DNA of 64,000 nt from an uncultured Clostridia bacterium (GTDB lineage Bacteria; Bacillota; Clostridia; UMGS1883), in NCBI GenBank assembly GCA_947626145.1, contig CANQRB010000004.1, positions 29,250 through 93,249 on the forward strand, read 5' to 3'. Every line of letters begins with the position of its first letter. Positions within the stretch are counted from its first letter, which is position 1. Positions 18,245 through 31,675 of this stretch are shown here, in pieces. The position numbers were made by a program, and so were the translations under genes. The notes below the pieces were generated by a model. The model did not search any database. It worked only from the letters and a program-made list of their open reading frames with translations, and was not told the DNA's origin.

Positions 18245-20366
18245 GATTGTAACCTCCAATTTTATTTATTCACTTTCTAATTGCAGGAAAACACCGCCAC
18301 TGTATGTCACGCCCCCTTTTGGGCGAATTTGTCCTCCGTACAATAAAAAATGCGCAGCTCATCGGAGCCGCGCACGAAAAATGCTTAGCTCCGAATTTAC
18401 TGCGACATAAATTAATATAACACAAAAGAAACGCATTTTTGGCACTCGCTCATTAAAAATGCAACCAGAGCGTTACAGGAGCAGCATTTTTACCAATGCT
18501 AATGTTGCTCCGGTTAGCACTTTTATACGTTAGAATGTTAAAACAATGATAGAAAATATAGGTACTCAAAAAAGAGCGCAAAAAGCGAACTTAATAAGCG
18601 TTTCTATATTAATCTATGTCGCAAATAAAGTATACCACACATTTTTCCGGTTGTAAAGTGTTTTTTTTTCGTAAATGAATAATTTTTTATAACATATTCG
18701 CCGCGAAACCCATCTAGGCGCTTATCTTGCTGCTGAACGGCTCCCCGACTGTTTTACAAAAGAGTCGAACATTGCACAAATTCGTTCTTCGTAGGAAGGA
18801 GCTGCCACAACATTTCCCTCCTTTTGCTAAAAATTGTTCTTGGTCGGTTTTCCCCCCCTTTGTAATACCGGAACAATTTAAGTTATACAAAATCGGAAAT
18901 TTTTTTAAATTATCTGAAAAAGTCAAAATAAAAAGGACAGATTAATATCTATCATTCTCAGTATTCAATTACATCGCCTTTAAAAATCCCCTCCGGCGCA
19001 TGAGGGGGTTTACGCCGGAGAAAATTTTATATATCAAAGAGGCCCGTGCCTCTTAATTTTTGCGGCCGGTTATGCCTGAGTCGCGGCGTCCGTCTTGACT
19101 CTGCGGAAGCGCACCAGACCCGTACGGTGAAGGGCAACCATTATTGCCGGGATAAGCACAAGTTGAAGTATTATTCCGGGGATGGCGTTAAGCACCGCAG
19201 TCTGCGCAGGACAAAAAACCTGAAAAGATGTCGATTTCGCCTGACTTTGTTGGTCTATGTTGCATGGCGATCCGCTTCTGTGCAAGCTCAAAGATTTCTT
19301 CGTCAATTAACGGCTCATGCGTATTAGGTAAGAAATAGCGTTGTTCTGCCTCTTTTTCGACTTATACGAAACCTTGTGTGTTTTCTCAGTGATGATATGC
19401 CCTAAATACTTTTACCGTGTCAGGATGTCAAACAGCGTTTTCTCCGGCCATGTGTAAGGAGCGATCAAGGCTTTCTGATGTCGCGCATTCCTCGTCCGCT
19501 CATAACGTAATGCACCGATTGTCAAAACCTTGTTGTCGTCAAGCCATCGCTGAATATCGCACATCTGAGTATCCTTCACATACATGACGAAAATCTGCTT
19601 GACTATGAGATGTATCCGTATGGATATTCCCCGTTGACGTGCTCGCCCTTTTGAGTCCGCGCCTGCTTTGCGGCTCGGTGGTTGTCGCTCGGCATATTCT
19701 CTCGGATATGTGTCATGGCACACCCGCCGTATGGCTCGGCGCAAAAGGGATGTGTCCTTTGTTGCTGTTATGATGCCTCGCTGTTATCTTGCGGGCAAAT
19801 TTGTCGAGGTTCGTACAGATGGGGAGTATCGGAAAGGGGGATTTATGCGCCGCTCCAGGTCGTCGGGTCAGTTCACCTGAAAAGTCAGAATTTTTGTAAT
19901 GAGCTTCGTTTCCAGTCTGCTGATCTTCGTCTACGCACAAATGAGGATTGCCATACTCGTCGTTTTCGATGTACACTGTATGATCCAGAATACCGAAAGC
20001 CCTGTCCTCTTTGAAATAACTGTCTCAGACTGAAAGCTGATTCATTACTTCAACAGGAAATTCGACAAAGAAAATCGCCTGCCTGCACATGGCAGGCGGG
20101 CGAAACGGAACTAACAGAAGTATTTACGTGATTTATGTGTTCATCTTCCTCGGCAGGGTATCCCGCTTGCTGGGTCAGACTTCTTTTGAGCGAAGAACCA
20201 TTGCCGGAATTTGTCGATATGGAATAGGCTTCATGGCGGCTACCTCCTGTTAGCCGCCATACCTGTTAGCCTGCAGTTTCTTCCCTTGTATCAAGAGAAA
20301 TGGCAGCCTATGAAAAACAAGCATATAACCAAGAGCAGCAGTATATAGGCTCTGCGTCTATGCGTC

Positions 20367-20530
20367 TTACTCTTTTACAACCTCGATCCGTAGGTGTTCC
20401 TCGTTAATCAGCGTTTTGCGTTTGCATTTGGGACAATACAACGGAAAGTTCTCCAGAATGGTATCTTCCAGTATTTTAATTCGTGTTTTGCTTTTACAAA
20501 CAGGACACAACACCAAAACGCTTTTATTTA
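20367..20530 (-). CDS. Cysteine-rich KTR-domain small protein (~50 aa), likely from a mobile-element backbone
   Basis: Minus-strand translation LCPVCKSKTRIKILEDTILENFPLYCPKCKRKTLINEEHLRIEVVKE matches the Cys_rich_KTR family (two CxxC pairs). The start is probably GTG/TTG. Not in the ORF track (short). Confidence 0.4.
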
Positions 20531-20716: not shown

Positions 20717-21340
20717 TTACGATTTTTTGAACTTCGTTTTAAGCGCCTCAAAGTTTGCTTTCAGCTTGGCACGCTCAGCTTCCATTTTCTGCTTGCGTTC
20801 TGCGCTACGCTCAGCGTGCATCTTACGGCGAGCTTCGTCGGCAAGTTCTTTTTCTACGCGCATTGCTTCTTCTACCTCGTCCTGTACCAATGTAGCATCG
20901 CGTCGAAGAATCGTCGTTTGAAACTTATCGAACCGAAAATCCAGTGCATGATCTGTTTCCTCCTGCGCAAGGAGAAGAATCGCGACCTCACCGTCCTCCA
21001 GCTTTGATCCAACCGTTTCCAGCATTGTGTTGTTCCGATCCACATCATCAATGTCTTTGGCGCTTCCAATCAGATGACCTGTCATACCACCCAAAAGGAT
21101 GCCGAGAGGACCACCGAGAATTCCGATCAGACCGCCAATCAGACCGCCCGCGAGGGCGTCATCGCTGCTGTCCATGCCGCTTGTGAATGAGTCTATGGTG
21201 GAAATTATATTACCGTTTTTCTTTACAAGCGCCCCTTGCAATACGGTATATTGCGGCATAATTGGCTGCTTTTTGATTCCCATGTAGGCTTGATAGCCCT
21301 CGCTTTCCACATTGAACAAAATAGTTAAGACATTTTCCAT
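20717..21340 (-). CDS. Hypothetical protein with a glycine-zipper core and Lys/Glu-rich coiled-coil tail
   Basis: 207 aa. GGLIGGLIGILGGPLGILLGGMTGHLIGS glycine-zipper motif, and a C-terminal ERSAERKQKMEAERAKLKANFEALKTKFKK. GAAAGGAAG RBS. Confidence 0.7.
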   Translation of the reverse strand: MENVLTILFNVESEGYQAYMGIKKQPIMPQYTVLQGALVKKNGNIISTIDSFTSGMDSSDDALAGGLIGGLIGILGGPLGILLGGMTGHLIGSAKDIDDVDRNNTMLETVGSKLEDGEVAILLLAQEETDHALDFRFDKFQTTILRRDATLVQDEVEEAMRVEKELADEARRKMHAERSAERKQKMEAERAKLKANFEALKTKFKKS

Positions 21341-21538
21341 TCGTGAAACTTCCTTTCTTTTGTTGTTATTTTAATCACTAAATTGCTTTTGCCAATCTAT
21401 ACACGAAATCAATTATATTGCGCCTAAAAACTTTGTATATCGGTGTTTCGGGCAATAGGGGTAACCATTAACGGACGCCGCGTCATCTCGTATTTAATCG
21501 CAAGTTTTCCTCGATCAAAGAGAAACGTAATTGCCTTT

Positions 21539-21988
21539 TTATCTCCTGTTTGCTTTTTTCAGTTCCTTTTGGGCGGCTTTGATTTCCCGTTGCAGTTCGT
21601 CAAGTTCCTGTTCCAGTGCGTCGGCAATATAATCTCCGGTAATCACAGCGGCACGAATCATACAGGCGGTGCTTACAATGGCATCCTCCACCTCTTTTCC
21701 GAGTCCGAGGAGTTCCAGAGAACCTGTGCCGTTTTCATCGTACAGCACCACGTCCGGAATCCCGTTTTTATCCGTGTCTCCGAAGTACAGATTGAATTCT
21801 CCGTCGCCGGTGAGATCCACCGCCAGCGTGTCAATATCTCCGTCGCCGGTGGTATCAAGCAAAGCCAAATCCGCTTCTTTATCTCCGTCAATATCGATCA
21901 AAATCTCGTCTTTTCCACTGCGAAGCAGTGTCTTGTGCCAGTCGCGGTCAAATTTCATTTTAGTTTTCAATTTTCTGAGGGTTCCCAT
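21539..21988 (-). CDS. Hypothetical protein with tandem DxDxDG (EF-hand/dockerin-like) calcium-binding repeats
   Basis: 149 aa. DIDGDKEAD, DTTGDGDID, DLTGDGEFN and DTDKNGIPD loops. C-terminal amphipathic helix LEQELDELQREIKAAQKELKK. AAAGGAG RBS. The overlapping plus ORF 21443-22039 is rejected. Confidence 0.7.
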   Translation of the reverse strand: MGTLRKLKTKMKFDRDWHKTLLRSGKDEILIDIDGDKEADLALLDTTGDGDIDTLAVDLTGDGEFNLYFGDTDKNGIPDVVLYDENGTGSLELLGLGKEVEDAIVSTACMIRAAVITGDYIADALEQELDELQREIKAAQKELKKANRR

Positions 21989-22039
21989 AGGTCATTGCTC
22001 CTTTTCTTTTATTTTGGGCTTTTTCAGCCTTTTTTATAG

Positions 22040-22330
22040 GGTTATTCTGTCCGCAACACAAACAGGGGCTCTCTTTGCGGCATTTCTGGAGGGGATGATG
22101 CCGGCAATTTCTGACGCAACAAGCACCCCACCCCTGTGGTGGCCGGGTAGTGTTTAACTTCGAAATAAATCAATGAAATCATTAGTAATCTTATAACTTC
22201 TCCCTTGATTTATTCCGTTTCATCCGATCCCATTTTTGCAGCAGCCTCTTTATAGAAACATCCAAATATCCAATATAATTTTGCCACCGTAAAATCCGCT
22301 TATGATAGGGGCCTTCCTTTCCAAAAAACT
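22040..22330 (-). pseudogene. Rearrangement scar: relic SAS leader fused to a GT8 3' end fragment and a pgsA-like 5' fragment
   Basis: 22040-22140 parallels the first ~35 codons of the PgsA-like gene (22987..). 22140-22260 parallels the last 15 codons of the GT8 gene (FYKEAAAKMGSDETE vs FYKEAVAKMRSDETE) plus the intergenic spacer. 22290-22330 repeats the SAS gene leader/RBS (ttttttggaaaggaagg). No intact ORF. Confidence 0.6.
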
Positions 22331-22368
22331 TGTTGGATTGATACCGTCTCTGCCGCTTCTCACAAATC

Positions 22369-22403
22369 ATGATAGCAGAGAAATCTAAACTGAAACGAAA
22401 CTG
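22369..22403 (-). promoter_or_regulatory. Conserved promoter module, copy 1 (TTTCAGTTTAGATT box + TGC-TATCAT)
   Basis: Minus-sense GTTTCGTTTCAGTTTAGATTTCTCTGCTATCATGA. It lies upstream of the scar and of the 21988/21340 genes. Confidence 0.55.
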
Positions 22404-22414
22404 TCTTTTTTCTT

Positions 22415-22987
22415 TTATTTGTGCGGAACAGGATTGTTTTTACTCAAAATATGCTTATAGTATCGGATATAAAGGATGAGAGACATAATCATCAAACATC
22501 CGCTTATTAGAATTAGACCATTTGCTATTTTCAATGGGATATCGGGGAAAAGGATAAGCACAGATATAACAATATACAAAAAAACTGTGTTCAACTTTCC
22601 ATACCATTTTGCGCTGTTGACAGTATCTTTTCGTTTCAAAGCAAGATATCCAAGCGTGGCCATGCAGATTTCTTTTCCGATAAACAATACGATCAGAACA
22701 GACATCCACTTATACCGACTCGAAAGGCAGACAATAAGTACACATTGCGTCAATTTATCCGCTATGGGGTCTAATATCTTGCCAAGATCGGATACCATAT
22801 GGAACTTCCGTGCAATGATACCATCAGCAATGTCCGTAATTGCTGACGCGACAAGCACTCCTGTGGCTGCTTGGTAGTGTTTGACCCCGATATAAAGCCA
22901 TACGATCAGCGGGATCATCAGTAATCTTATAACGCTAAGCAAATTCGGTATGGTCAGGATTTGGTCTTTTTTGAATATCCTGTGCAT
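22415..22987 (-). CDS. CDP-alcohol phosphatidyltransferase (PgsA-like)
   Basis: 190 aa, polytopic. Signature DIADGIIARKFHMVSDLGKILDPIADK (D-G-x2-A-R...G...D...D). Confidence 0.8.
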   Translation of the reverse strand: MHRIFKKDQILTIPNLLSVIRLLMIPLIVWLYIGVKHYQAATGVLVASAITDIADGIIARKFHMVSDLGKILDPIADKLTQCVLIVCLSSRYKWMSVLIVLFIGKEICMATLGYLALKRKDTVNSAKWYGKLNTVFLYIVISVLILFPDIPLKIANGLILISGCLMIMSLILYIRYYKHILSKNNPVPHK

Positions 22988-23005
22988 TGAATATCCTCCC
23001 TTAAT

Positions 23006-23851
23006 CTATTCCGTTTCATCTGATCTCATTTTTGCAACAGCCTCTTTATAGAACACATCCAAATCTCCGATATAATTTTCTTTCCACGGTTTATTCCTTC
23101 CGCAGTAGTGAATTATAATGGAGTGCTTTCGTACCCAATTCAAATCAAGACTTTTTTCAAATGGACTGTGCACCCGATAAAGCCACTCTGTCATGTTATA
23201 TCGAAATGGGTCCAGCGTATAGATTTTGCTGCCATACAGGCTGCTGATAATGTCCTGATCCGGAAAGACAAGATGAGATTTTCTCTTTTCGATGAAGTGA
23301 AACACATCCGCATAGTCCTGCTCTTTCCGTAAAAGCGAGAGGTTCATGAGCAACACGCCGGAATTAATATATGGGCTGTTGTCATCCATATCCAGACGCA
23401 GTTCATTGAACTTATGGAGAAACCCAAGACTGTCAATGTGTGACGCTGCCGCATAATAGTATTCTTCCATCGAGGTCTGATACAGTGGAAGAATCGAACC
23501 ATTGAGAACAAGATCGGGGTCAAGATAGAGCACGCGGTCGAGAGTCTCCGGCAGATAGCGTGCAGCAAAAATACGGTAATAAATCTCTTGTGGATAGCGC
23601 GAAGTTGTTGGGGCCTCGTCAAGCGCCAAATAATCAGCCTTTATTGGGATCAGACATCCTCCTGCCTTAAAAAGCATTTTTTCGGTTGCTTTAAGCGCCT
23701 GCTTTGAAATTGAGGAATGAAGAAGATACACATGGAATACGCAGCCTGGGTTGGAGCGAATCAAGGTTGAAAGCATCACATTCAAATAGGGGATGTAGTT
23801 TTCATCCAAAGTAACAAGAATATTAATCGGATTTATCAATCCAGGATTCAT
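23006..23851 (-). CDS. Family 8 glycosyltransferase (GspA/LPS glucosyltransferase-like)
   Basis: Start at MNPGLINPINILVTLDENYIPYL (GGAGGG RBS; the track's upstream extension is rejected). YLDPDLV DxD motif and a GT8 core. Confidence 0.8.
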   Translation of the reverse strand: MNPGLINPINILVTLDENYIPYLNVMLSTLIRSNPGCVFHVYLLHSSISKQALKATEKMLFKAGGCLIPIKADYLALDEAPTTSRYPQEIYYRIFAARYLPETLDRVLYLDPDLVLNGSILPLYQTSMEEYYYAAASHIDSLGFLHKFNELRLDMDDNSPYINSGVLLMNLSLLRKEQDYADVFHFIEKRKSHLVFPDQDIISSLYGSKIYTLDPFRYNMTEWLYRVHSPFEKSLDLNWVRKHSIIIHYCGRNKPWKENYIGDLDVFYKEAVAKMRSDETE

Positions 23852-23917
23852 TTTAATCCCTCCCTGTTTCTTATGTTGTATATAGTCTTCTTCACCCATT
23901 CACAAATCCTACCATTT

Positions 23918-24625
23918 CTATCGTGGTTTCAGAGTATTTTTATTTTGTTGGGTCTTTTTTAAGAGGTTATCCATTCTCCGATCAAGTTCCGCGCTGAGGT
24001 TTGCGCACTGATAAAGTTCCTCAGCCATTTCCGGGGTAAATGCAGAATCCTTTTTATAACGAAGCTGATGTTCAAGGCTGGCCCAGAAATCCATCGCTAT
24101 CGTGCGCAGCTGAATTTCTACTTTCATCATCCGTTTTTCATGTGCCAAAAAGATCGGAATTGCTACAATCAGATGCAGACTTCTATATCCGTTGGGTTTC
24201 GGGTTTTTTATGTAGTCCTTTTTTTCAATCAGGGTAATGTCATCCTGTATGAGCAATGCCTCTGACAGCGCATAAACATCGTCCGGAAATGAGCAGATTA
24301 CTCGAACACCGGCAATATCGTTTAGATTTTCTTCTATAGAGGAAAGTGTGGGCGGGATGCCCCGCCGCTCCAATTTTTCTTTTATGCTGCGGGGATTTTT
24401 CAGTCTGGTTTTGATACTGCTTATCGGATTACGGTCGAATTCCAAAGAATATTCTTCATTCAACACATTGAATTTTGTTTCAATCTCCATCATGGCACAT
24501 TTGTAATAGGACATCAGGCGGATAAAAGGTACAGATTTTCTCTGCATCCAGTCGATTGTCTGATCGTCCACAATAGAGAGCATTCGTGTTTTTATATTTT
24601 CATCCTCTTGATTCCATTCAGACAT
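23918..24625 (-). CDS. Small alarmone synthetase (RelA/SpoT-domain GTP pyrophosphokinase, RelQ/RelP-like)
   Basis: Start at MSEWNQ with GGAAAGGAAG RBS. Synthetase motifs GYRSLHLIV, EIQLRT, DFWASLEH.LRYK. ~235 aa with no hydrolase domain. Confidence 0.8.
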   Translation of the reverse strand: MSEWNQEDENIKTRMLSIVDDQTIDWMQRKSVPFIRLMSYYKCAMMEIETKFNVLNEEYSLEFDRNPISSIKTRLKNPRSIKEKLERRGIPPTLSSIEENLNDIAGVRVICSFPDDVYALSEALLIQDDITLIEKKDYIKNPKPNGYRSLHLIVAIPIFLAHEKRMMKVEIQLRTIAMDFWASLEHQLRYKKDSAFTPEMAEELYQCANLSAELDRRMDNLLKKTQQNKNTLKPR

Positions 24626-24692
24626 TCTGATCTTCCTTTCCAAAAAACAAAGCTTGTTGGATCAATACCGGCTCTGCCGCTTTTCGCAGGTA

Positions 24693-24724
24693 ATGATAGC
24701 AGAGAAAACTAAACTGAAACAAAA
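24693..24724 (-). promoter_or_regulatory. Conserved promoter module, copy 2 (upstream of the SAS-GT8-pgsA operon)
   Basis: Minus-sense GTTTTGTTTCAGTTTAGTTTTCTCTGCTATCATTA. The -10 is ~70 nt from the start codon. Confidence 0.55.
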
Positions 24725-24818
24725 CAACGACGGACCCTTCGAAAAAGAAGAATCCGTCTGACCGCTTTACGGCGGAAGTAATAAACTAATTTTATAACCA
24801 TTTCGCAAGTTGACTGTA

Positions 24819-26588
24819 TCAAGCTGCAAGGCAGCGAGCGTTGGCGCTGGATTGCTCCAGCCGGTCAGATGCTGCTTTGATTGCAGCCATCTCACTTTCA
24901 GTTACGGTTTCCGGTTTATATTTGCCAAGCAACTTTCGTAATGCAGAACAGTCTTCTTTAATCTGCTTTTTTTCTTCTTTTTCAAGCTGCTTCCCAACTT
25001 TGTGCAATGCCTGTTCAGCTTCTGATAATACCTTCCCTGCGCGATTAACCATTTCTAAAGAGTTACGGCGAACACCATCCTGTGCCGCATACTGTTCCGC
25101 ATCGCGAATCGCCTGTTCAATCTCCGCATCGGACATTTTATCATTGTTCGAAATGGTAATAGACTGTGCTTTCCCCGTATCCAAATCTCTTGCGGACACT
25201 TTTAAAATTCCATTGGCATCAATGTCGAAAGTAACTTCAATCTGCGGCACTCCTGCGGGGGCTTTCTTAATTCCGTTAAGTTTGAATTTGCCGATGGTCT
25301 TATTATCGCGTGCCATTGGCCGTTCTCCTTGTAGAACATGAATTTCCACACTGCTTTGAAACGGTGCCGCGGTTGAAAAAATCTGTGAATAGTGAATGGG
25401 CAAAGTGGAATTTCTCTCCACAAGACGTGTTGCGACACCGCCTACTGTTTCAATAGAAAGGCTGAGAGGGGTAACATCCAAAAGAAGGATACCGTTTTCC
25501 GAACCGGCAATCTGCAGCGAACCGCCAGAAAGCGTGTCTCCCTGAATGGCGGCGCCCTGAGCAACACACTCATCCGGATTGATATTCTTTGACGGTATAA
25601 TACCGGTCAATTGACGCACTTTTTCCTGAACAGCGGGAATACGGGTTGCGCCTCCGACAAGGATGACCTTGCCAAGTTCGGATGGCGCAATACCAGCATC
25701 ATTCAAGGCGTTCTGTACCGGAATTGCTGTTCGATCCACAAGATCGCGGGTCAGCTCGTTGAATTTGGCACGGGTGAGGATAGTATCAAAGTGTATTATG
25801 CCGTCCTTTTCCTGGGCCAGGTACGGCAGGCTTATCATAGCGTTCTCTGAGCCGGACAGTTCCTTTTTTGCCTGTTCAGCCGCTTCACGCACACGCTGCA
25901 ATGCTACATAATCTTTTTTTACATCTGTATGATACTGCCTCTGAATTTCCGAAATCAAATACTCAGTGATACGCTCATCAAAGTCATCGCCGCCCAAATG
26001 GTTATCACCATTTGTTGCCAGAACTTCTATAACGCCGTCTCCAATCTCAATGATGGAAACATCAAAAGTACCGCCGCCAAGGTCATATACCATGACCTTT
26101 TGCTGTGTTCCGTTATCCAGCCCGTAAGCAAGCGCGGCGCTGGTTGGCTCATTAATAATCCGTTTTACATTTAAGCCTGCAATTCGCCCGGCATCTTTTG
26201 TGGCCTGTCGCTGAATATCGTTAAAATAAGCGGGTACAGTGATGACCGCGTCCGTCACTTCCTCTCCAAGAAAGGCTTCTGCATCCTTGCGCAGTTTTCG
26301 TAGAATCATTGCACTGATCTCCTGCGGCGTAAATCTTTTACCGTCAATATTGATAGTCCAATCCGTCCCCATGTGACGTTTCACAGACGAAACGGTTCGG
26401 GACGCATTAGTAACCGCCTGTCGTCTTGCCGTTTCACCCACTAACCGTTCACCGGATGCGGTAAAAGCAACAATGCTGGGAGTGGTTCTTCCGCCTTGTT
26501 CGCTTGGAATGATAACGGGTTTGCCGCCCTCTACAAAAGCGACGCAGCTATTCGTTGTTCCAAGATCAATACCGATTGTTTTTCCCAC
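24819..26588 (-). CDS. Hsp70-family chaperone paralog (DnaK-like, not in a canonical hrcA-grpE-dnaK-dnaJ context)
   Basis: Probable GTG start at [14 protein letters not shown] (GGAAAGGATGG RBS). Complete actin-like NBD ([24 protein letters not shown]) and substrate-binding domain. Neither grpE nor a full dnaJ is adjacent. Confidence 0.85.
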
Positions 26589-26605
26589 AGTAATTCCATC
26601 CTTTC

Positions 26606-27406
26606 CTACATACATCTAAGGCAGCCAAATGGGCCGCATAGGAATTGCATGGCTAAAAAGCCAAAACATATTTTTTGTATATTAGTGGCTTCCATATCGA
26701 AGCCTTTTGCATTTTGTTCATAGGTTTGCTCTGAACGGCGAAATTTTTGCAAAAGCAGATGATAGGTGCGATTATTCGGCTCCATTTGTGATGCTCTCTG
26801 CATATGGTCGATTGCCTGAACGGTGTTACCAAGACCATGATTGGCAAGAGCGCTTAAATAATACCACCTTGCACCTCGTCCTACGCTCGGTATACGGGTC
26901 AAAATCCAAATTGCCTCTTGATAGCGATGGTTATTGATTTCAGTAATGGCCTGCCTGATTTCCATATTGTCGCCCGGCTCAGGCTGCGGATTCATAAAAA
27001 CGGCATCATCATTGCCGTTCCGTTCAAATCCAAATCCAAAAATATTCCCAAAGTCAAAGCCGCCAAAATCGCTCGACCAGCCACCCGGACCTCGATAACC
27101 GCCAGAGCCGCCCTGCCTTTCATATCCGGTTCCACTATAACCGCCGTTTTGATTTTCCGTATATCCCCCATATTGCCTACTCTGTCCGTAAGATTGGCGC
27201 TGCTGTGCTCGCCTTGCCTCATACTTCTGCGGATTCATCAACATATCGTAGGCTTCATTCACCGCATTCATTTTTTGGCTCGCGGTCGGATCATCGGGAT
27301 GCAAGTCAGGATGATATTGCTTTGCCTTTTGACGATATGCTTTTTTTATTTCTTCTTTAGTCGCTCCTTTAGGAACGCCCAGAGTTTGATAAGGGTCATT
27401 GACCAT
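26606..27406 (-). CDS. J-domain protein (DnaJ N-terminal domain only) with a Gly/Tyr-rich linker and a helical C-terminal domain
   Basis: YQTLGV...[15 protein letters not shown] contains the HPD motif. It lacks the CxxCxGxG zinc-finger and the client-binding domains of true DnaJ. Confidence 0.8.
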
Positions 27407-27409
27407 GGC

Positions 27410-28228
27410 TCACTTTTTCCTTTCCGTCTGCATTTGCCGGTTATATTTGATCCAAACGCCAGAATAAAGAATGTTCCTTAAAATGTGGGCGTCCTGGACA
27501 AGCGGCAGCGATTCAAAGGCTTCAGCAGCTTCTCCGAGAATGGTCTTCAGCATGGAGCGGATTTCTTCCTGACTCAGAGTGACAGAAGAAAAAGGATTAT
27601 AACTTCCTTTTTTCTGGTCATGCCTTAAATCAATCGCGGCATCGGCAAGATAGATATACTTTCCGATATGATAACCAAACTTCTGCAAACGCGGCATCCA
27701 GTGATCCGGCTCAACCACAAAAATCGTTGACATCAATCTGCCAAAGCTGTTGGCTGCCGCATCTGGAGAGGCGAAGCAGGATTTCTCAATTTCAGAGATT
27801 TCATTTATTTCCTTTTCGATGATCGAACACTGATCTTTTCTTGCTGCTCTGACTTCTTCATAAGCCTTTTTAAGCAGAGTGGCATAGCACTTGTGGGAGA
27901 TATTTCGATCATCGTTCCAGTCGTCAAGACATTTGAAGTATGTCAAGGCTATTGTCATATCGGCGGCATAGTCTATATATTTACCGGACAGATAATTATG
28001 TTTCTTGCATGGATGCACGGCACATCGCACCGCTTTGCTGGTTTCCTCCGGTTCATACAAGGATGATAAAAACATAGCCAAGAATGTCAGATCGTATGTC
28101 AGTCCCAATCGCGACCTAAATCCATACCTTTCCCCCAACGCATGACACAATCCGCAATAAAAGGCACGATACCGTTCTTTTTCTTCATCAGTAAGACCGG
28201 ATAAATTGGCCTGTATGATTCCAAACAT
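27410..28228 (-). CDS. Uncharacterized Cys-rich cytoplasmic protein co-operonic with the J-domain/Hsp70 pair
   Basis: 272 aa; N-terminus MFGIIQANLSGLTDEEKERYRAFYCGLCHALGERYGF. From memory it resembles DUF5685-type proteins that accompany Hsp70/J pairs in Clostridia; this is not verified here. Confidence 0.6.
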   Translation of the reverse strand: MFGIIQANLSGLTDEEKERYRAFYCGLCHALGERYGFRSRLGLTYDLTFLAMFLSSLYEPEETSKAVRCAVHPCKKHNYLSGKYIDYAADMTIALTYFKCLDDWNDDRNISHKCYATLLKKAYEEVRAARKDQCSIIEKEINEISEIEKSCFASPDAAANSFGRLMSTIFVVEPDHWMPRLQKFGYHIGKYIYLADAAIDLRHDQKKGSYNPFSSVTLSQEEIRSMLKTILGEAAEAFESLPLVQDAHILRNILYSGVWIKYNRQMQTERKK

Positions 28229-28237
28229 AGTGCCACC

Positions 28238-28648
28238 TCATGTTTTGCGGGTTATTTTGCCTTTACATACCGGACAAGTGATTTCAATTTGCCCTTTTCC
28301 TTTCGGAACTCGTAGCCAACTTTTGCAGTTCGGACATTTATAATACCGATGCGTCTTTCGATCTCGCCACATATTTTTCCGACGTTTGAAACTCTGCTTC
28401 ACTTTGTCTGTATATTTCAAGAAAGTTTCCCGCTCCTTCTGTCGTTTTTCAAGATTGCGGGAAAAGCTGCGAAACATCGACCAAATCAACAGAATCATCG
28501 CAATCGGATATAGCAGAGGGACGAGCGGGGAAATGAGTACGAAAACCAGCACCGCAATCAATAGAAATTTGGAAAGCTCGTCATAGCCGTATCTTCCGTA
28601 CATCCATGCCTGCATTTTTTCTCCGAGCCTTTGCAACCATCGTTTCAT
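28238..28648 (-). CDS. Small membrane protein with a C-terminal zinc ribbon
   Basis: 136 aa; one or two TM helices, then CPNC...CPVC near the C-terminus. First gene after promoter module copy 3. Confidence 0.65.
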   Translation of the reverse strand: MKRWLQRLGEKMQAWMYGRYGYDELSKFLLIAVLVFVLISPLVPLLYPIAMILLIWSMFRSFSRNLEKRQKERETFLKYTDKVKQSFKRRKNMWRDRKTHRYYKCPNCKSWLRVPKGKGQIEITCPVCKGKITRKT

Positions 28649-28688
28649 TTTCCGTTTCTCCTTTATCGGCTTACTCTTTTTACACCAA

Positions 28689-28722
28689 ATTTTACAGCAA
28701 GAATCTAAACTGAAACGAAACT
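28689..28722 (-). promoter_or_regulatory. Conserved promoter module, copy 3 (upstream of the zinc-ribbon/DUF/J-domain/Hsp70 operon)
   Basis: Minus-sense GTTTCGTTTCAGTTTAGATTCTTGCTGTAAAATTT. The -10 TAAAAT is ~40 nt from the ATG. Confidence 0.55.
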
Positions 28723-28928
28723 AAGGAAGAGCTTTCTTCCAGACTATTTTTTCGGTAAGTTCAGTTCTGATAGATTTACTGAATAGCCGCAGAAGTCATA
28801 GACCTACATAAAAAAGAACCTCCACAACGAAGGCTCTCACGGTAAATCTCATATTGGAAGCGGCAGTATGCCTCACAGCACACTGCCACTTTACGCTTCT
28901 CATGCTTAATTAAATGTCCCGCACTATT

Positions 28929-29714
28929 TTATCCAATGCCTCTGAAAGCATTAACGGAAAGAATCGCCACGCCTAAAACCGTCAGCACCACACCAACAGC
29001 CCTGTTGAGCGTTTTGGCGCTGGCCTTGTTTGCGAACAATGCGGCGATCCTTGCCCACAACAGAGTAAACGCCACGCAGAGAGCGAGACACCATAGGTCG
29101 GGCATATCGCCAATGGCAAAATGACTGACGGCGCCGGTCAGCGCGGTAAAGGTCATAATAAAGACACTGGTACCCACAGCGGTTTTTAATTCATATCCCA
29201 AAATGCTGGTCAACAGAAGCAGCATCATCATTCCACCGCCTGCGCCCACAAAACCACAAATGAAGCCGACGACCATTCCGCAGACAATCGACTGAATCGT
29301 CCGCTTTTTTGCGCTTACGACAGCCATCGCCTCCTTTGTGGTCATGACAGGTTTTACAATAAATTTGATGCCCAAAAGCATCGTCATGAAGACGGAGAAG
29401 CTGCCCATAGTGGCGTTGGAGACCAGACTGGCTACCCAACTGCCTACTAAGGTGAAAAGCAAGACGGCCACCATCATAACAAGCCCGTTGCGAATGTCGA
29501 TGTTTTTGTTTTTTCCATAGGTATAGGCGCTGACCGCACTTGCCAGCACGTCACTTGCCAGAGCGATGCCTACCGCTTCATAAGCCGGCATACCCATAAA
29601 TGTGATCAGCATTGGGCTGATGACTGCGGCGGCGCTCATTCCGGCAAAACCGGTTCCCAAACCCGCTCCGATACCTGCTATAAAACAAACTAAAACTTTT
29701 ACCCACAGATTCAT
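28929..29714 (-). CDS. TauE/SafE-family (sulfite exporter-like) membrane protein
   Basis: Start at MNLWVKVLVCFIAGIGAGLGTGFAGMSAAAV with GGAGAAAAA RBS. Two repeated 4-TM halves with G-rich motifs, typical of TauE. The track's 5' extension is rejected. Confidence 0.75.
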   Translation of the reverse strand: MNLWVKVLVCFIAGIGAGLGTGFAGMSAAAVISPMLITFMGMPAYEAVGIALASDVLASAVSAYTYGKNKNIDIRNGLVMMVAVLLFTLVGSWVASLVSNATMGSFSVFMTMLLGIKFIVKPVMTTKEAMAVVSAKKRTIQSIVCGMVVGFICGFVGAGGGMMMLLLLTSILGYELKTAVGTSVFIMTFTALTGAVSHFAIGDMPDLWCLALCVAFTLLWARIAALFANKASAKTLNRAVGVVLTVLGVAILSVNAFRGIG

Positions 29715-29845
29715 TTTGCGTTTTTCTCCATATATTTTTTTATATTCTTTTCCACCCGCGTTATGTAGGACTGAAACTGCCGCTGACCTCTTTGTCAAGA
29801 TCGTCTGCGATGATATCCGCAAAATCGAAGCACTCTGATAAAAAA

Positions 29846-30940
29846 TCAGTTTTTCTGGCTTTCTTCTTCTGCATTTAGCTTTGATTTCGGCAATGTAACC
29901 GTAAACATGGTAAGATTGTTTTCGCTTTGAACCGAAACCGTTCCGTTGTGCAATTCCACCACTTTTTTGACAATTGCAAGCCCGATTCCGTTTCCCTCAC
30001 CGGAGTGTGAACTGTCAGCCTGATAAAATTTCTGAAAGATTCGTGATATACTTTCCGCAGGAATTTCCTCTCCCGAATTGATGATATCCACGGACAGGGA
30101 AGACGGTTGATTTTTAATATTGACTTCAATGACTCCTCCAGCGGGAGAAAATTTGATCGCGTTATCCAGCAGATTGATCCACACCTGTTTCAAAAGCTCC
30201 TCATTGGCAGAAATCCTGTATTCACCGAAATCCACTTTAAAGTCCAGTTGCTTTTTTTCCCACTTGTCGGCAAGCAACAGGATGGAAGACCGGATTTGTT
30301 CTGAAAGGTTAAACTTTACAACATCCGTTAAAATCGTTTGATTTTCTACCCGCGTCAGATTCAACACGTTTGTCGCCATATCAGAAAGCCGCAGAGATTC
30401 TTCTTCGATAACCGCCAAATATTCCCCTTTTTGTTCTTCTGTCAGGTTGCCTCGGCGAAGCAGCTTTGCAAAGCCGGCAATAGATACGATGGGCGTTTTG
30501 AATTCATGCGAAAAATTATTTACAAAATCCCCACGAAGCATCTCTGTATTTTTGAGTTCAGAAGCCATTCGATTGAAGCTGTGCGAAAGCTGCGAAAAAG
30601 TAGGATGTTTGGATATGGGCCATCCGAAATCCAATCGGGCACTGAAATCACCGGATGCCAGCCGATCGATTTGATAAATTACATTCCGCAGGGGGCGGGC
30701 GGATATTTTACTGGATAAATAGGCAACAATGACACCGACAATATTACTGATGACGATCATGTAGAGGATGATAATACCGATGTTTGATCGGATATCGGTA
30801 TCAAGCGTGACAACTTGAAAATGTACCAGCATATAAATAATAGAAGCGGTTATTGAAGTAATAATAAATTGAATGAAAAAAATAAGTGTCGATATTAAAA
30901 ACGTGAGCGCAAAATAATGTTTTCGATTTTGTTTGTTCAT
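29846..30940 (-). CDS. Sensor histidine kinase (two N-terminal TM helices, HisKA, HATPase_c)
   Basis: H-box FSHEFKTPIVSIAGF, N-box LLDNAIKFSPAGG, G-boxes GEGNGIGLAIVKK. Overlaps the regulator gene stop. Confidence 0.9.
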   Translation of the reverse strand: MNKQNRKHYFALTFLISTLIFFIQFIITSITASIIYMLVHFQVVTLDTDIRSNIGIIILYMIVISNIVGVIVAYLSSKISARPLRNVIYQIDRLASGDFSARLDFGWPISKHPTFSQLSHSFNRMASELKNTEMLRGDFVNNFSHEFKTPIVSIAGFAKLLRRGNLTEEQKGEYLAVIEEESLRLSDMATNVLNLTRVENQTILTDVVKFNLSEQIRSSILLLADKWEKKQLDFKVDFGEYRISANEELLKQVWINLLDNAIKFSPAGGVIEVNIKNQPSSLSVDIINSGEEIPAESISRIFQKFYQADSSHSGEGNGIGLAIVKKVVELHNGTVSVQSENNLTMFTVTLPKSKLNAEEESQKN

Positions 30941-31611
30941 ACTTTTTTCACCGCCTTATATCCGAGCCCGCGCACGGATTCGATATCAAATTCTTCCCAA
31001 CCCTCGAACCGTTTGCGGAGCCTGCCGATGTGAACCGTCACAGTTTCCCACCCGGTATCGCTCTCAGCGCCCCAGATTTCATCCATCAGTTGAATCCGTG
31101 TAAAAATCTTTCCGGGGTATGACAGCAATTTATAAAGTAACAAAAATTCCTTTTGCGGGAGTTCTTGTGTCTCGCCGTTTTTGGTCACGGTAAAGGAATC
31201 GTAATCCAAAATTACATTTCCAATCGTCATTTTACGTTCGTTGGCAATTTGAGCGCGGCGTAGAAGTGCTTTGATTCGCCAGAGCATTTCTTCCTCATCA
31301 ATCGGTTTTGTCATGTAGTCGTCAATCCCTAATGAAAAACCTTTATGTTTATCTTCGGGGAGCTGTTTTGCCGAAACCATAAGAATGGGAAGATTGTTCT
31401 TGCTTTCGCGGAGGATTTTTGTAAATTCATATCCGTCCATTTTCGGCATCATTATGTCGAGAATCACAAGGTCAATATACTCTTTATCCATTACATCGAG
31501 GGCGTCTTCACCGTTTTCCGCAGTAAATACAGAATAGTGCTCCGTTTCAAGCACGGCTTTGAGCAGCCGGCGTGTATTTTTATCGTCGTCTACAACAAGA
31601 ATTTGGAACAT
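30937..31611 (-). CDS. OmpR-family response regulator
   Basis: Receiver domain VVDDDKN...DLVILDIMMPKMDG plus a winged-helix C-terminus (GYEFTK...RGLGYKAV). Confidence 0.9.
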   Translation of the reverse strand: MFQILVVDDDKNTRRLLKAVLETEHYSVFTAENGEDALDVMDKEYIDLVILDIMMPKMDGYEFTKILRESKNNLPILMVSAKQLPEDKHKGFSLGIDDYMTKPIDEEEMLWRIKALLRRAQIANERKMTIGNVILDYDSFTVTKNGETQELPQKEFLLLYKLLSYPGKIFTRIQLMDEIWGAESDTGWETVTVHIGRLRKRFEGWEEFDIESVRGLGYKAVKKV

Positions 31612-31642
31612 TGTTTACACCTCCTAATAATCAATATAAGAT

Positions 31643-31675
31643 AAGATAACATACAAATCTAAACTGAAAAGAAAG
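31643..31675 (-). promoter_or_regulatory. Conserved promoter module, copy 4 (upstream of the response-regulator/kinase/TauE operon)
   Basis: Minus-sense CTTTCTTTTCAGTTTAGATTTGTATGTTATCTTAT. The -10 TATCTT with TGT is ~30 nt from the ATG. Confidence 0.55.

Follow-up and report, generated by a model that had tools for sequence, protein, structure and literature searches.

The DNA analysed here is a 64,000-nt stretch (the window) of an uncultured Clostridia bacterium (GCA_947626145.1, contig CANQRB010000004.1, positions 29,250-93,249), whose minus strand carries an island of genes that includes an intact unit of a leader followed by genes for a small alarmone synthetase (SAS), a GT8 glycosyltransferase and a PgsA-like phosphatidyltransferase. 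Behind this unit lies a degenerate interval (the scar, 22402-22042), and directly behind the scar lies the gene for a 149-aa Asp-rich repeat protein, here called CaBP, which matches no Pfam or NCBIfam family (Table 1). We found that the approximately 420 bases upstream of CaBP are the debris of four older pieces, namely a copy of a promoter and its leader, fragments of the GT8 and pgsA-like genes, and the tail of a gene for an ATP-binding cassette (ABC)/FtsX transporter. The event that left them is loss of the transporter gene with the promoter retained or replaced, that is, operon decay without regulon gain. Events of this kind are ordinary; the present one is unusually well documented and is notable for an apparently hybrid promoter and for recurrent loss of the transporter.

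Table 1. Features of the minus-strand island and of the scar upstream of CaBP, listed from high to low window coordinates.
Feature	Position	Strand	Remarks
M4, promoter module upstream of the response-regulator/histidine-kinase genes	31643-31675	-	strict regular expression
Response regulator, OmpR/PhoB family	31611-30937	-	Pfam Response_reg and Trans_reg_C
Histidine kinase	30940-29846	-	Pfam HisKA and HATPase_c
TauE-like membrane protein	between histidine kinase and Zn-ribbon operon	-	
M3, promoter module upstream of the Zn-ribbon/DUF5685/DnaJ/Hsp70 operon	28689-28721	-	strict regular expression
Zn-ribbon membrane protein, DUF5685, DnaJ-TPR and Hsp70 genes, in that order	ending 24819	-	
Terminator-like hairpin	24758-24729	-	after Hsp70 gene, before M1
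M1, parental SAS-operon promoter module	24693-24725	-	preceded by the hairpin 24758-24729
Parental unit, intact	24692-22415	-	SAS leader 24692-24632, then SAS, GT8 and PgsA-like genes
SAS	24625-23918	-	Pfam RelA_SpoT
GT8 glycosyltransferase	23899-23006	-	Pfam Glyco_transf_8
PgsA-like CDP-alcohol phosphatidyltransferase	22987-22415	-	Pfam CDP-OH_P_transf
M2, second promoter copy	22369-22401	-	GTTTCG-N5-GTTTAG, 10-nt spacer, TATCAT; strict regular expression
Copy of the SAS 5' leader through the ribosome-binding site (GGAAAGGAAG)	22313-22368	-	5-nt deletion; no start codon behind
Deletion junction, leader copy to GT8 tail	22283-22312	-	30 nt
GT8 pseudogene fragment, last 24 codons including stop	22210-22282	-	~73 nt; TAA 22212-22210; 1-nt deletion shifts frame
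Copy of GT8-pgsA spacer and pgsA ribosome-binding site (AAGGGAG), then 2-nt junction	22198-22209	-	
pgsA-like pseudogene fragment, codons 19 to ~50	22110-22197	-	indels; 81-83% identical to 22933-22842
Microhomology aattgccggcat at the pgsA'/ftsX' fusion	22098-22109	-	similarity tracts overlap
ABC-ATPase/FtsX pseudogene tail, frameshifted last ~22 codons and stop	22042-22109	-	blastn, tblastn
Ancestral ABC-CaBP intergenic region	21989-22041	-	small stem-loop GGCTgaaaaAGCC (~22030-22018) and CaBP ribosome-binding site
CaBP, Asp-rich repeat protein	21988-21539	-	directly behind the scar
DUF1269 glycine-zipper protein	21340-20717	-	198-nt spacer separates it from CaBP

Pairwise alignment of the scar with the intact unit upstream identified three copied segments. 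The module and leader (22402-22313) matched 24726-24632 at 79 of 89 positions with one 5-nt gap (z = 48; local alignment score 118, mean of shuffles 14.5), the end of GT8 with its stop, the spacer and the pgsA ribosome-binding site (22282-22200) matched 23079-22996 at 76 of 83 positions with a frameshifting 1-nt deletion (z = 44), and 22197-22098 matched pgsA 22933-22830 at 77 of 95 positions with indels of −7, −2 and +5 (z = 27). All three keep the order and strand of the parent and are collinear with SAS-GT8-pgsA. The original prediction, that the SAS leader is repeated here together with GT8 and pgsA stretches, was therefore correct in kind and inexact in extent: the GT8 copy, put at about 50 nt and 15 codons, covers about 73 nt and 24 codons including the stop, while the pgsA copy is degenerate as described and consists of codons 19 to ~50 and not the first 35, the 62 nt of the parent that hold the ATG and codons 1-18 (22995-22934) having no counterpart in the relic. 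The last part of the interval (22109-22042), also attributed to pgsA, proved to be the tail of the lost ABC/FtsX gene. Between leader copy and GT8 tail, the 30 nt at 22312-22283 gave no alignment to SAS or GT8 above shuffles, and an assignment to either gene was dropped. The same arrangement was observed in all 13 contigs recovered with the exact CaBP or PgsA-like protein (L001-L013), which come from at least 11 samples, so that it is no assembly artefact.

The fourth piece was recognised through related loci, among them L108, a syntenic sister lineage that is ~89-91% identical to the window from DnaJ to beyond CaBP. Similarity to pgsA stops at query position 103 and similarity to FtsX begins at 92-93. 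In blastn the scar tail was 85% identical to L016 across 115 nt (E = 3e-30) and also matched L014, L015, L018, L024 and L029, and the alignment with L108 (90.8% over 576 nt) began exactly at 22108. By tblastn, LVASEIAGIIPSRNAAKRAPV in the window pairs with MVLTLIAGIIPSRSAAKKDPV in the relatives; the window tail reads LVASEIAGIIPSRNAAKRAPV, then a frameshift, then LRTE*, and the intact gene ends …LIAGIIPSRSAAKKDPVVALRTE* in L014, L024 and L029, with L015 and L016 matching at the nucleotide level. In the relatives the gene encodes a fused ABC ATPase and FtsX permease of ~1000 aa. With its ABC_tran and C-terminal FtsX domains (Pfam) and MacB as best NCBIfam match it resembles MacB-type transporters, although these ~1000-aa proteins fall below the cut-off of the MacB equivalog (281 against 966 bits). 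The typical C-terminal motif, IIPSR.AAK..P…LRTE, is still present in the relic, which differs from such transporters in that no more than 22 frameshifted codons are retained.

Between this tail and CaBP lies a 53-nt spacer (22041-21989) that is identical to L108 at 52 of 53 positions, compared with ~90% in the flanks, and that is recognisable as an ABC-CaBP spacer in L014, L016, L018 and L094. The stem-loop in it, of 4-5 bp and without a U-tract, stands directly behind the ABC stop and is found again in L014, L016 and L094, and L029 has one with another stem sequence (CAGGCgccatGCCTG); a role in the processing or stability of mRNA is possible.

M2, the promoter copy at the head of the scar, is one of a family of 33-nt modules made up of GTTTCG-N5-GTTTAG, a 10-nt spacer and TATCAT, TAAAAT or TATCTT. 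A strict regular expression for the module found four sites in the window, each of them on the minus strand and upstream of a gene, compared with three matches in 1.84 Mb of distant loci. M2 and M1 agree at 31 of 33 module bases, the −10 element and the spacer being identical. We also searched 80 related loci for the module core TTTCAGTTTAG with up to two mismatches and obtained no convincing match within 450 nt of CaBP. The module of the relatives therefore had to lie farther upstream, before the ABC gene, which was then confirmed: it stands directly upstream of the ABC/FtsX gene in L014, L015, L024, L029 and L108. A distance of 53-64 nt separates the stop of that gene from the CaBP start downstream in L014, L015, L029, L094, L102, L104 and L108, a CmpB-like gene sits between the two in L024, and in L094 the module heads an FtsH-ABC-CaBP operon. 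The ABC gene also directly precedes CaBP in L102 and L104, but the strict expression matched nothing in these two. Six related lineages (L014, L015, L024, L029, L094 and L108) have a module-headed operon that ends in CaBP; in addition, a variant module precedes CaBP itself by 145 nt in L027, and L105 has a decayed ABC module directly in front of CaBP. Judged from this gene order, the ancestral state is module-ABC/FtsX-CaBP and, since the module-headed operons of relatives end in CaBP, the gene was module-driven before the rearrangement.

These comparisons bear directly on the central claim of the original prediction, which was regulon expansion by promoter capture, the copied SAS promoter bringing CaBP and the glycine-zipper gene behind it into the regulon from outside. 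The locus does share with promoter capture in regulon evolution a gene that stands behind a promoter copy from another operon; the copied promoter and leader do exist in intact form, and M2 is the one module of the window in the 450 nt before CaBP. The model is nevertheless already contradicted by the comparative data, and we consider it very improbable. CaBP was under the same type of box beforehand in the six lineages named above, as well as in L027 and, in decayed form, L105; the window keeps the tail of the very ABC gene that tied CaBP to its old module; and M2 occupies the ancestral module position with the ancestral flank. The outcome is thus conservation or rescue of regulation and not gain, which removes the claimed case of regulon expansion and reveals no new mechanism.

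The M2 copy is intact, and the claim that it drives the glycine-zipper (DUF1269) gene as well as CaBP is doubtful for the former. Co-transcription of DUF1269 from M2 is possible but uncertain, given the 198-nt spacer and the two sigma-70-like sites that it contains. These lie on the coding strand of the CaBP-DUF1269 spacer (21341-21538) and have 10 of 12 matches each (TATACA-16-TATAAT, 21439-21412; TTGGCA-16-TAAAAT, 21395-21368). Among the 80 related loci a DUF1269 homologue was detected near CaBP in L075 alone, so the adjacency seems specific to the window's species; the rarity of this neighbour and its own sigma-70-like sites also weigh against its recruitment by a captured promoter.

The make-up of M2 indicates how the copy may have arisen. 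M2 begins 13 nt after the pgsA stop, and the ABC module of L024 begins 7 nt after the pgsA stop of that locus. The flank and 5' half of M2 (22420-22380) matched the flank and 5' half of the L108 ABC module at 90% over 41 nt, and the flank alone matched at 15 of 19 positions (binomial p = 0.017). M1 and the SAS module of L108 have GTTTTG in common, and M2 has GTTTCG as do all ABC modules. The spacer, −10 element and leader of M2 are of SAS type, the ABC leaders of relatives being short and unrelated. From this comparison M2 looks chimeric, joining a 5' flank and first repeat of ABC-operon type to a spacer, −10 element and leader of SAS type. The two modules of L108 share a perfect 17-nt core, GTTTCAGTTTAGATTTC, and a hybrid M2 with this shared core is what unequal exchange between a SAS module and an ABC module predicts.

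We infer that the scar probably arose through unequal crossover between promoter boxes, duplication and three deletions, leaving a junk 5' untranslated region and an M2 that keeps CaBP regulated. The ancestor would have resembled L024 and L108, with module-SAS-(VTT)-GT8-PgsA followed by a second module, the fused MacB-like ABC/FtsX gene and CaBP. Unequal crossover between the two directly repeated modules would have produced both a tandem duplicate of SAS-GT8-PgsA and the chimeric M2 directly after the pgsA stop. A first deletion of ~1.5 kb would then have run from just after the SAS ribosome-binding site to GT8 codon ~273, a second of 62 nt would have removed the pgsA start, and a third would have taken out ~3.4 kb including the original ABC module, fusing pgsA codon ~50 to ABC codon ~980 at aattgccggcat and leaving CaBP behind M2 with ~374 nt of junk as its 5' untranslated region. 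Duplication of SAS-GT8-pgsA followed by internal deletion, as the original prediction had it, thus remains the best reading of collinear fragments on one strand. As a 3' endpoint of the tandem duplication we rejected a 13-nt match, AAATAAAAGAAAA (22014-22002 against 22420-22408), since the same A-rich string occurs in the ABC-CaBP spacer of L016 and L108.

Several points weigh against this history. No intact tandem duplicate was found in the 80 related loci, no locus of L014-L110 has two copies of SAS-GT8-PgsA, and the exact M1/M2 promoter pattern gave no matches in the metagenomes of JGI. A repeat of 17 nt is short for RecA-dependent exchange. The similarity of the M2 flank is A-rich, extends over just 19 nt and was noticed post hoc, while the activity of M2 and the binding of a regulator to it are predictions. 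The relic pgsA fragment is also as close to the pgsA of L024 (84%) as to the window's own. Finally, lineage-specific sites over the leader and GT8 tail, counted by eye, number 8 in the relic, 8 in the intact copy and 10 in L108. With the three about equidistant, the duplication would date from around the time when the window's lineage and L108 separated, a split that corresponds to ~10% divergence in nucleotides (L014, the next species, differs by 20-23% at third positions), though such equidistant counts fix neither the timing nor the direction of duplication.

The missing duplicate would be explained if a full tandem copy never existed and the scar formed in a single complex repair event, by microhomology-mediated template switching or insertion of filler DNA, during deletion of the ABC gene. 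The microhomology at the pgsA'/ftsX' junction agrees with such an event, as do the shortness of the pieces, all of them collinear and on the same strand, and the junction pieces of 30 nt and 2 nt without a template. At least four template switches in perfect operon order would, however, be required, and the junction in M2 lies inside the 17-nt repeat at the ancestral module position, as unequal exchange predicts. It is general knowledge, moreover, that in bacterial duplications deletion between short repeats within the redundant copy is the commoner route. We therefore regard a single repair event as unlikely.

The site counts and the affinity of the pgsA fragment with L024 bear on a further alternative, namely that the relic is the original resident operon and that the intact Hsp70-module-SAS-GT8-PgsA block was imported later from another lineage. 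Species with 95-98% identical CaBP differ strongly in the mosaic make-up of the island, and by our reading of the alignments the relic agrees with L108 at sites where the intact copy deviates. The intact block is nonetheless syntenic with L108 and ~89.6% identical to it from DnaJ through SAS, as vertical descent predicts; the three-way counts are symmetrical and give no sign of a foreign intact copy; and import would not lead one to expect an M2 that is chimeric and has a flank of ABC type. Later import of the block accordingly seems distinctly unlikely. The GT8 fragment, for its part, is 92% identical to the GT8 tail of L108.

Exchange between promoter boxes, duplication and deletion, as we prefer to read the locus, conforms to a classical course of events. 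Bacterial duplications classically form by unequal exchange between short direct repeats, after which the redundant copy decays by deletion. The scar shows the collinear same-strand fragments directly downstream of an intact unit, with the join inside a repeat, and the frameshifts, missing start codon, internal deletions and strain-level indels that characterise such decay. In classical duplications the repeats are insertion sequences (IS), repetitive extragenic palindromic (REP) elements or rRNA genes, whereas here they are operator/promoter boxes of one regulon; the locus further differs in that a working hybrid promoter is proposed and in that the neighbouring ABC gene was also removed. It offers a clean sequence-level example of a hybrid promoter from exchange between two operator boxes of one regulon.

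Loss of coding capacity was evident throughout the scar: the GT8 fragment has a 1-nt deletion, the pgsA fragment lacks its ATG and 18 codons and has the indels given above, and the FtsX tail is frameshifted. Strains differ within it as well. A 5-nt tandem duplication in the window (ggggtggggtg, 22130-22139) is absent in L008 and L010 (indel at 22134) and creates the sole terminator-like hairpin in the scar (22142-22128, 5 bp). L008, a 99% identical strain, carries a 174-nt insertion resembling a miniature inverted-repeat transposable element at window position ~22157 (L008:714-883), with terminal inverted repeats of 14-18 nt (GGCAATACCGCACA…TGTGCGGTATTGCC) and a TTAA target duplication; no other copy of the terminal repeat GGCAATACCGCACA was found in the window or in loci L001-L093. 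Constraint is relaxed within the population, an observation that is qualitative only in so small a sample, and these features together point to neutral decay.

Two open reading frames (ORFs) in the scar, of 59 codons (22370-22191) and 46 codons (22182-22042), and the unusual conservation of the last 53 nt before CaBP could suggest that the scar has a function, be it as a structured regulatory 5' untranslated region, a small RNA or a small-peptide gene. The frames are chance, badly placed and not conserved between strains: the longer begins within the −10 region, ahead of the point where transcription is predicted to start, and the shorter starts 18 nt after the nearest ribosome-binding site and is broken by the 5-nt strain indel. 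The conserved 53 nt are the ancestral ABC-CaBP spacer, outside the duplicated material, and one strain tolerates the 174-nt insertion. The 386-nt stretch covering the putative 5' untranslated region folds no better than shuffles (z = −0.34), and Rfam gave nothing at the gathering threshold and nothing relevant in a scan at E ≤ 1, so a structured leader RNA or riboswitch was rejected. A function for the scar as such is hardly credible, and 22402-22042 is better annotated as pseudogene debris (leader copy, GT8', pgsA', ftsX') than as ORFs or regulatory RNA, and CaBP as the distal gene left over from an earlier ABC-CaBP operon.

M2 itself is predicted to be an intact activator-dependent promoter of PhoB/OmpR type. 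A phosphorylated regulator would bind its two repeats and recruit RNA polymerase to the TATCAT −10 element; transcription would start near 22362 and run through ~374 nt of untranslated debris to the CaBP ribosome-binding site and ATG. Apart from the 5-bp hairpin at 22142-22128, no terminator-like site was found in the pgsA-CaBP interval and, with no credible terminator there, read-through from M1 would reach CaBP even without M2. Between them, M2 and M1 read-through would keep CaBP under the local two-component system, as before the rearrangement.

Features of the modules point to this type of promoter more generally. They contain direct repeats with an 11-bp period (GTTTCG-N5-GTTTAG in M2, M3 and most relatives, GTTTAG-N5-GTTTAG in L027), and the box takes the place of a −35 element, abutting the −10 (TATCAT, TAAAAT or TATCTT) across the 10-nt spacer. 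A sigma-70 scan requiring at least 4 of 6 matches in the −35 element flagged no promoter at the modules. The PHO box is defined by two 11-nt direct repeat units (PMC4415409), and the modules resemble PHO-box-type promoters of OmpR/PhoB regulators in having two direct repeats 11 bp apart beside a −10 element without a recognisable −35 (PMC4415409). A regulator of the OmpR/PhoB family is encoded in the island with a box upstream of its own gene, as in PHO-box systems. We infer that the modules are OmpR/PhoB-type activator-dependent promoters to which a regulator is predicted to bind; the response regulator and kinase of the island are presumably the regulators, and the two-component system appears to be autoregulated, with M4 heading its own regulator gene. 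The likeness has limits. The repeats GTTTCG and GTTTAG differ from CTGTCAT of the E. coli PHO box, no NCBIfam equivalog, not even PhoB, is matched by the island regulator above its curated cut-off, and the gene content of the island points to envelope or stress functions instead of a phosphate regulon. For DUF5685, encoded in the operon behind M3, the literature gave a single incidental mention only.

Loss of the transporter gene was not confined to the window. Whereas the last 22 ABC codons remain there, fused to pgsA', the sequence upstream of CaBP holds a radical-SAM-like gene and then ABC codons 949-1002 in L016, GT8 and then a remnant of approximately the last 10 ABC codons in L018, no ABC remnant in L019 and L020, and the first three ABC codons only in L105 and L107, with the module retained (seen in L105). 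In L105 the whole ABC/FtsX ORF has been deleted almost cleanly (L105:7875-8000), so that a decayed module (GTTTCAGCTTAGATTTTCATGAAAAAT), the ABC leader, the ATG and three codons are fused to the CaBP spacer. Since the junctions differ among loci, the ABC gene was lost several times independently while CaBP was kept. Recurrent loss of the MacB-like gene with CaBP maintained under the same control indicates that the function of CaBP is seemingly independent of the transporter.

The island (20717-31675) and the corresponding loci of L014, L024, L029, L094, L105 and L108 form a mosaic of cassettes, each headed by near-identical response-regulator boxes: Zn-ribbon/DUF5685/DnaJ/Hsp70, SAS/VTT/GT8/PgsA, FtsH, and ABC-FtsX/CmpB/CaBP. 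The content and order of cassettes vary among lineages whose CaBP is 95-98% identical. A tentative and rather doubtful extension of our reading is that the boxes at the cassette heads double as portable homology sites, recombination between them repeatedly duplicating, deleting and reshuffling cassettes between lineages while the survivors automatically keep the same regulator. Cassette shuffling would then be a homology-driven, integron-like mode of regulon evolution with M2 caught in the act, and the mosaic orders around a nearly constant CaBP, the module-keeping ABC loss in L105 and the SAS debris in L094 would be its footprints.

In L094, too, gene debris serves as leader of an operon behind a module: within L094:1836-2416, ~580 nt of SAS pseudogene, with frames reading …LIQDDITLIEKK.YIKNPKPNGYRSLHLIVAIPIF…, separate a module from the next intact gene, which encodes a hydrolase. 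In L108 the SAS gene (L108:2574-3291) is called as two fragments of 86 aa and 73 aa on DNA ~90% identical to the window's SAS, and this alarmone synthetase may be a pseudogene.

Downstream of DUF1269 (19657-20450) the window contains a Cys-rich KTR gene (20516-20367), together with fragments that share 80-92% identity with L108:8816-10305. The counterpart in L108 adjoins sigma-70_r4, HTH_16, TnpW and serine-recombinase genes, which points to a mobile-element remnant at the border of the island.

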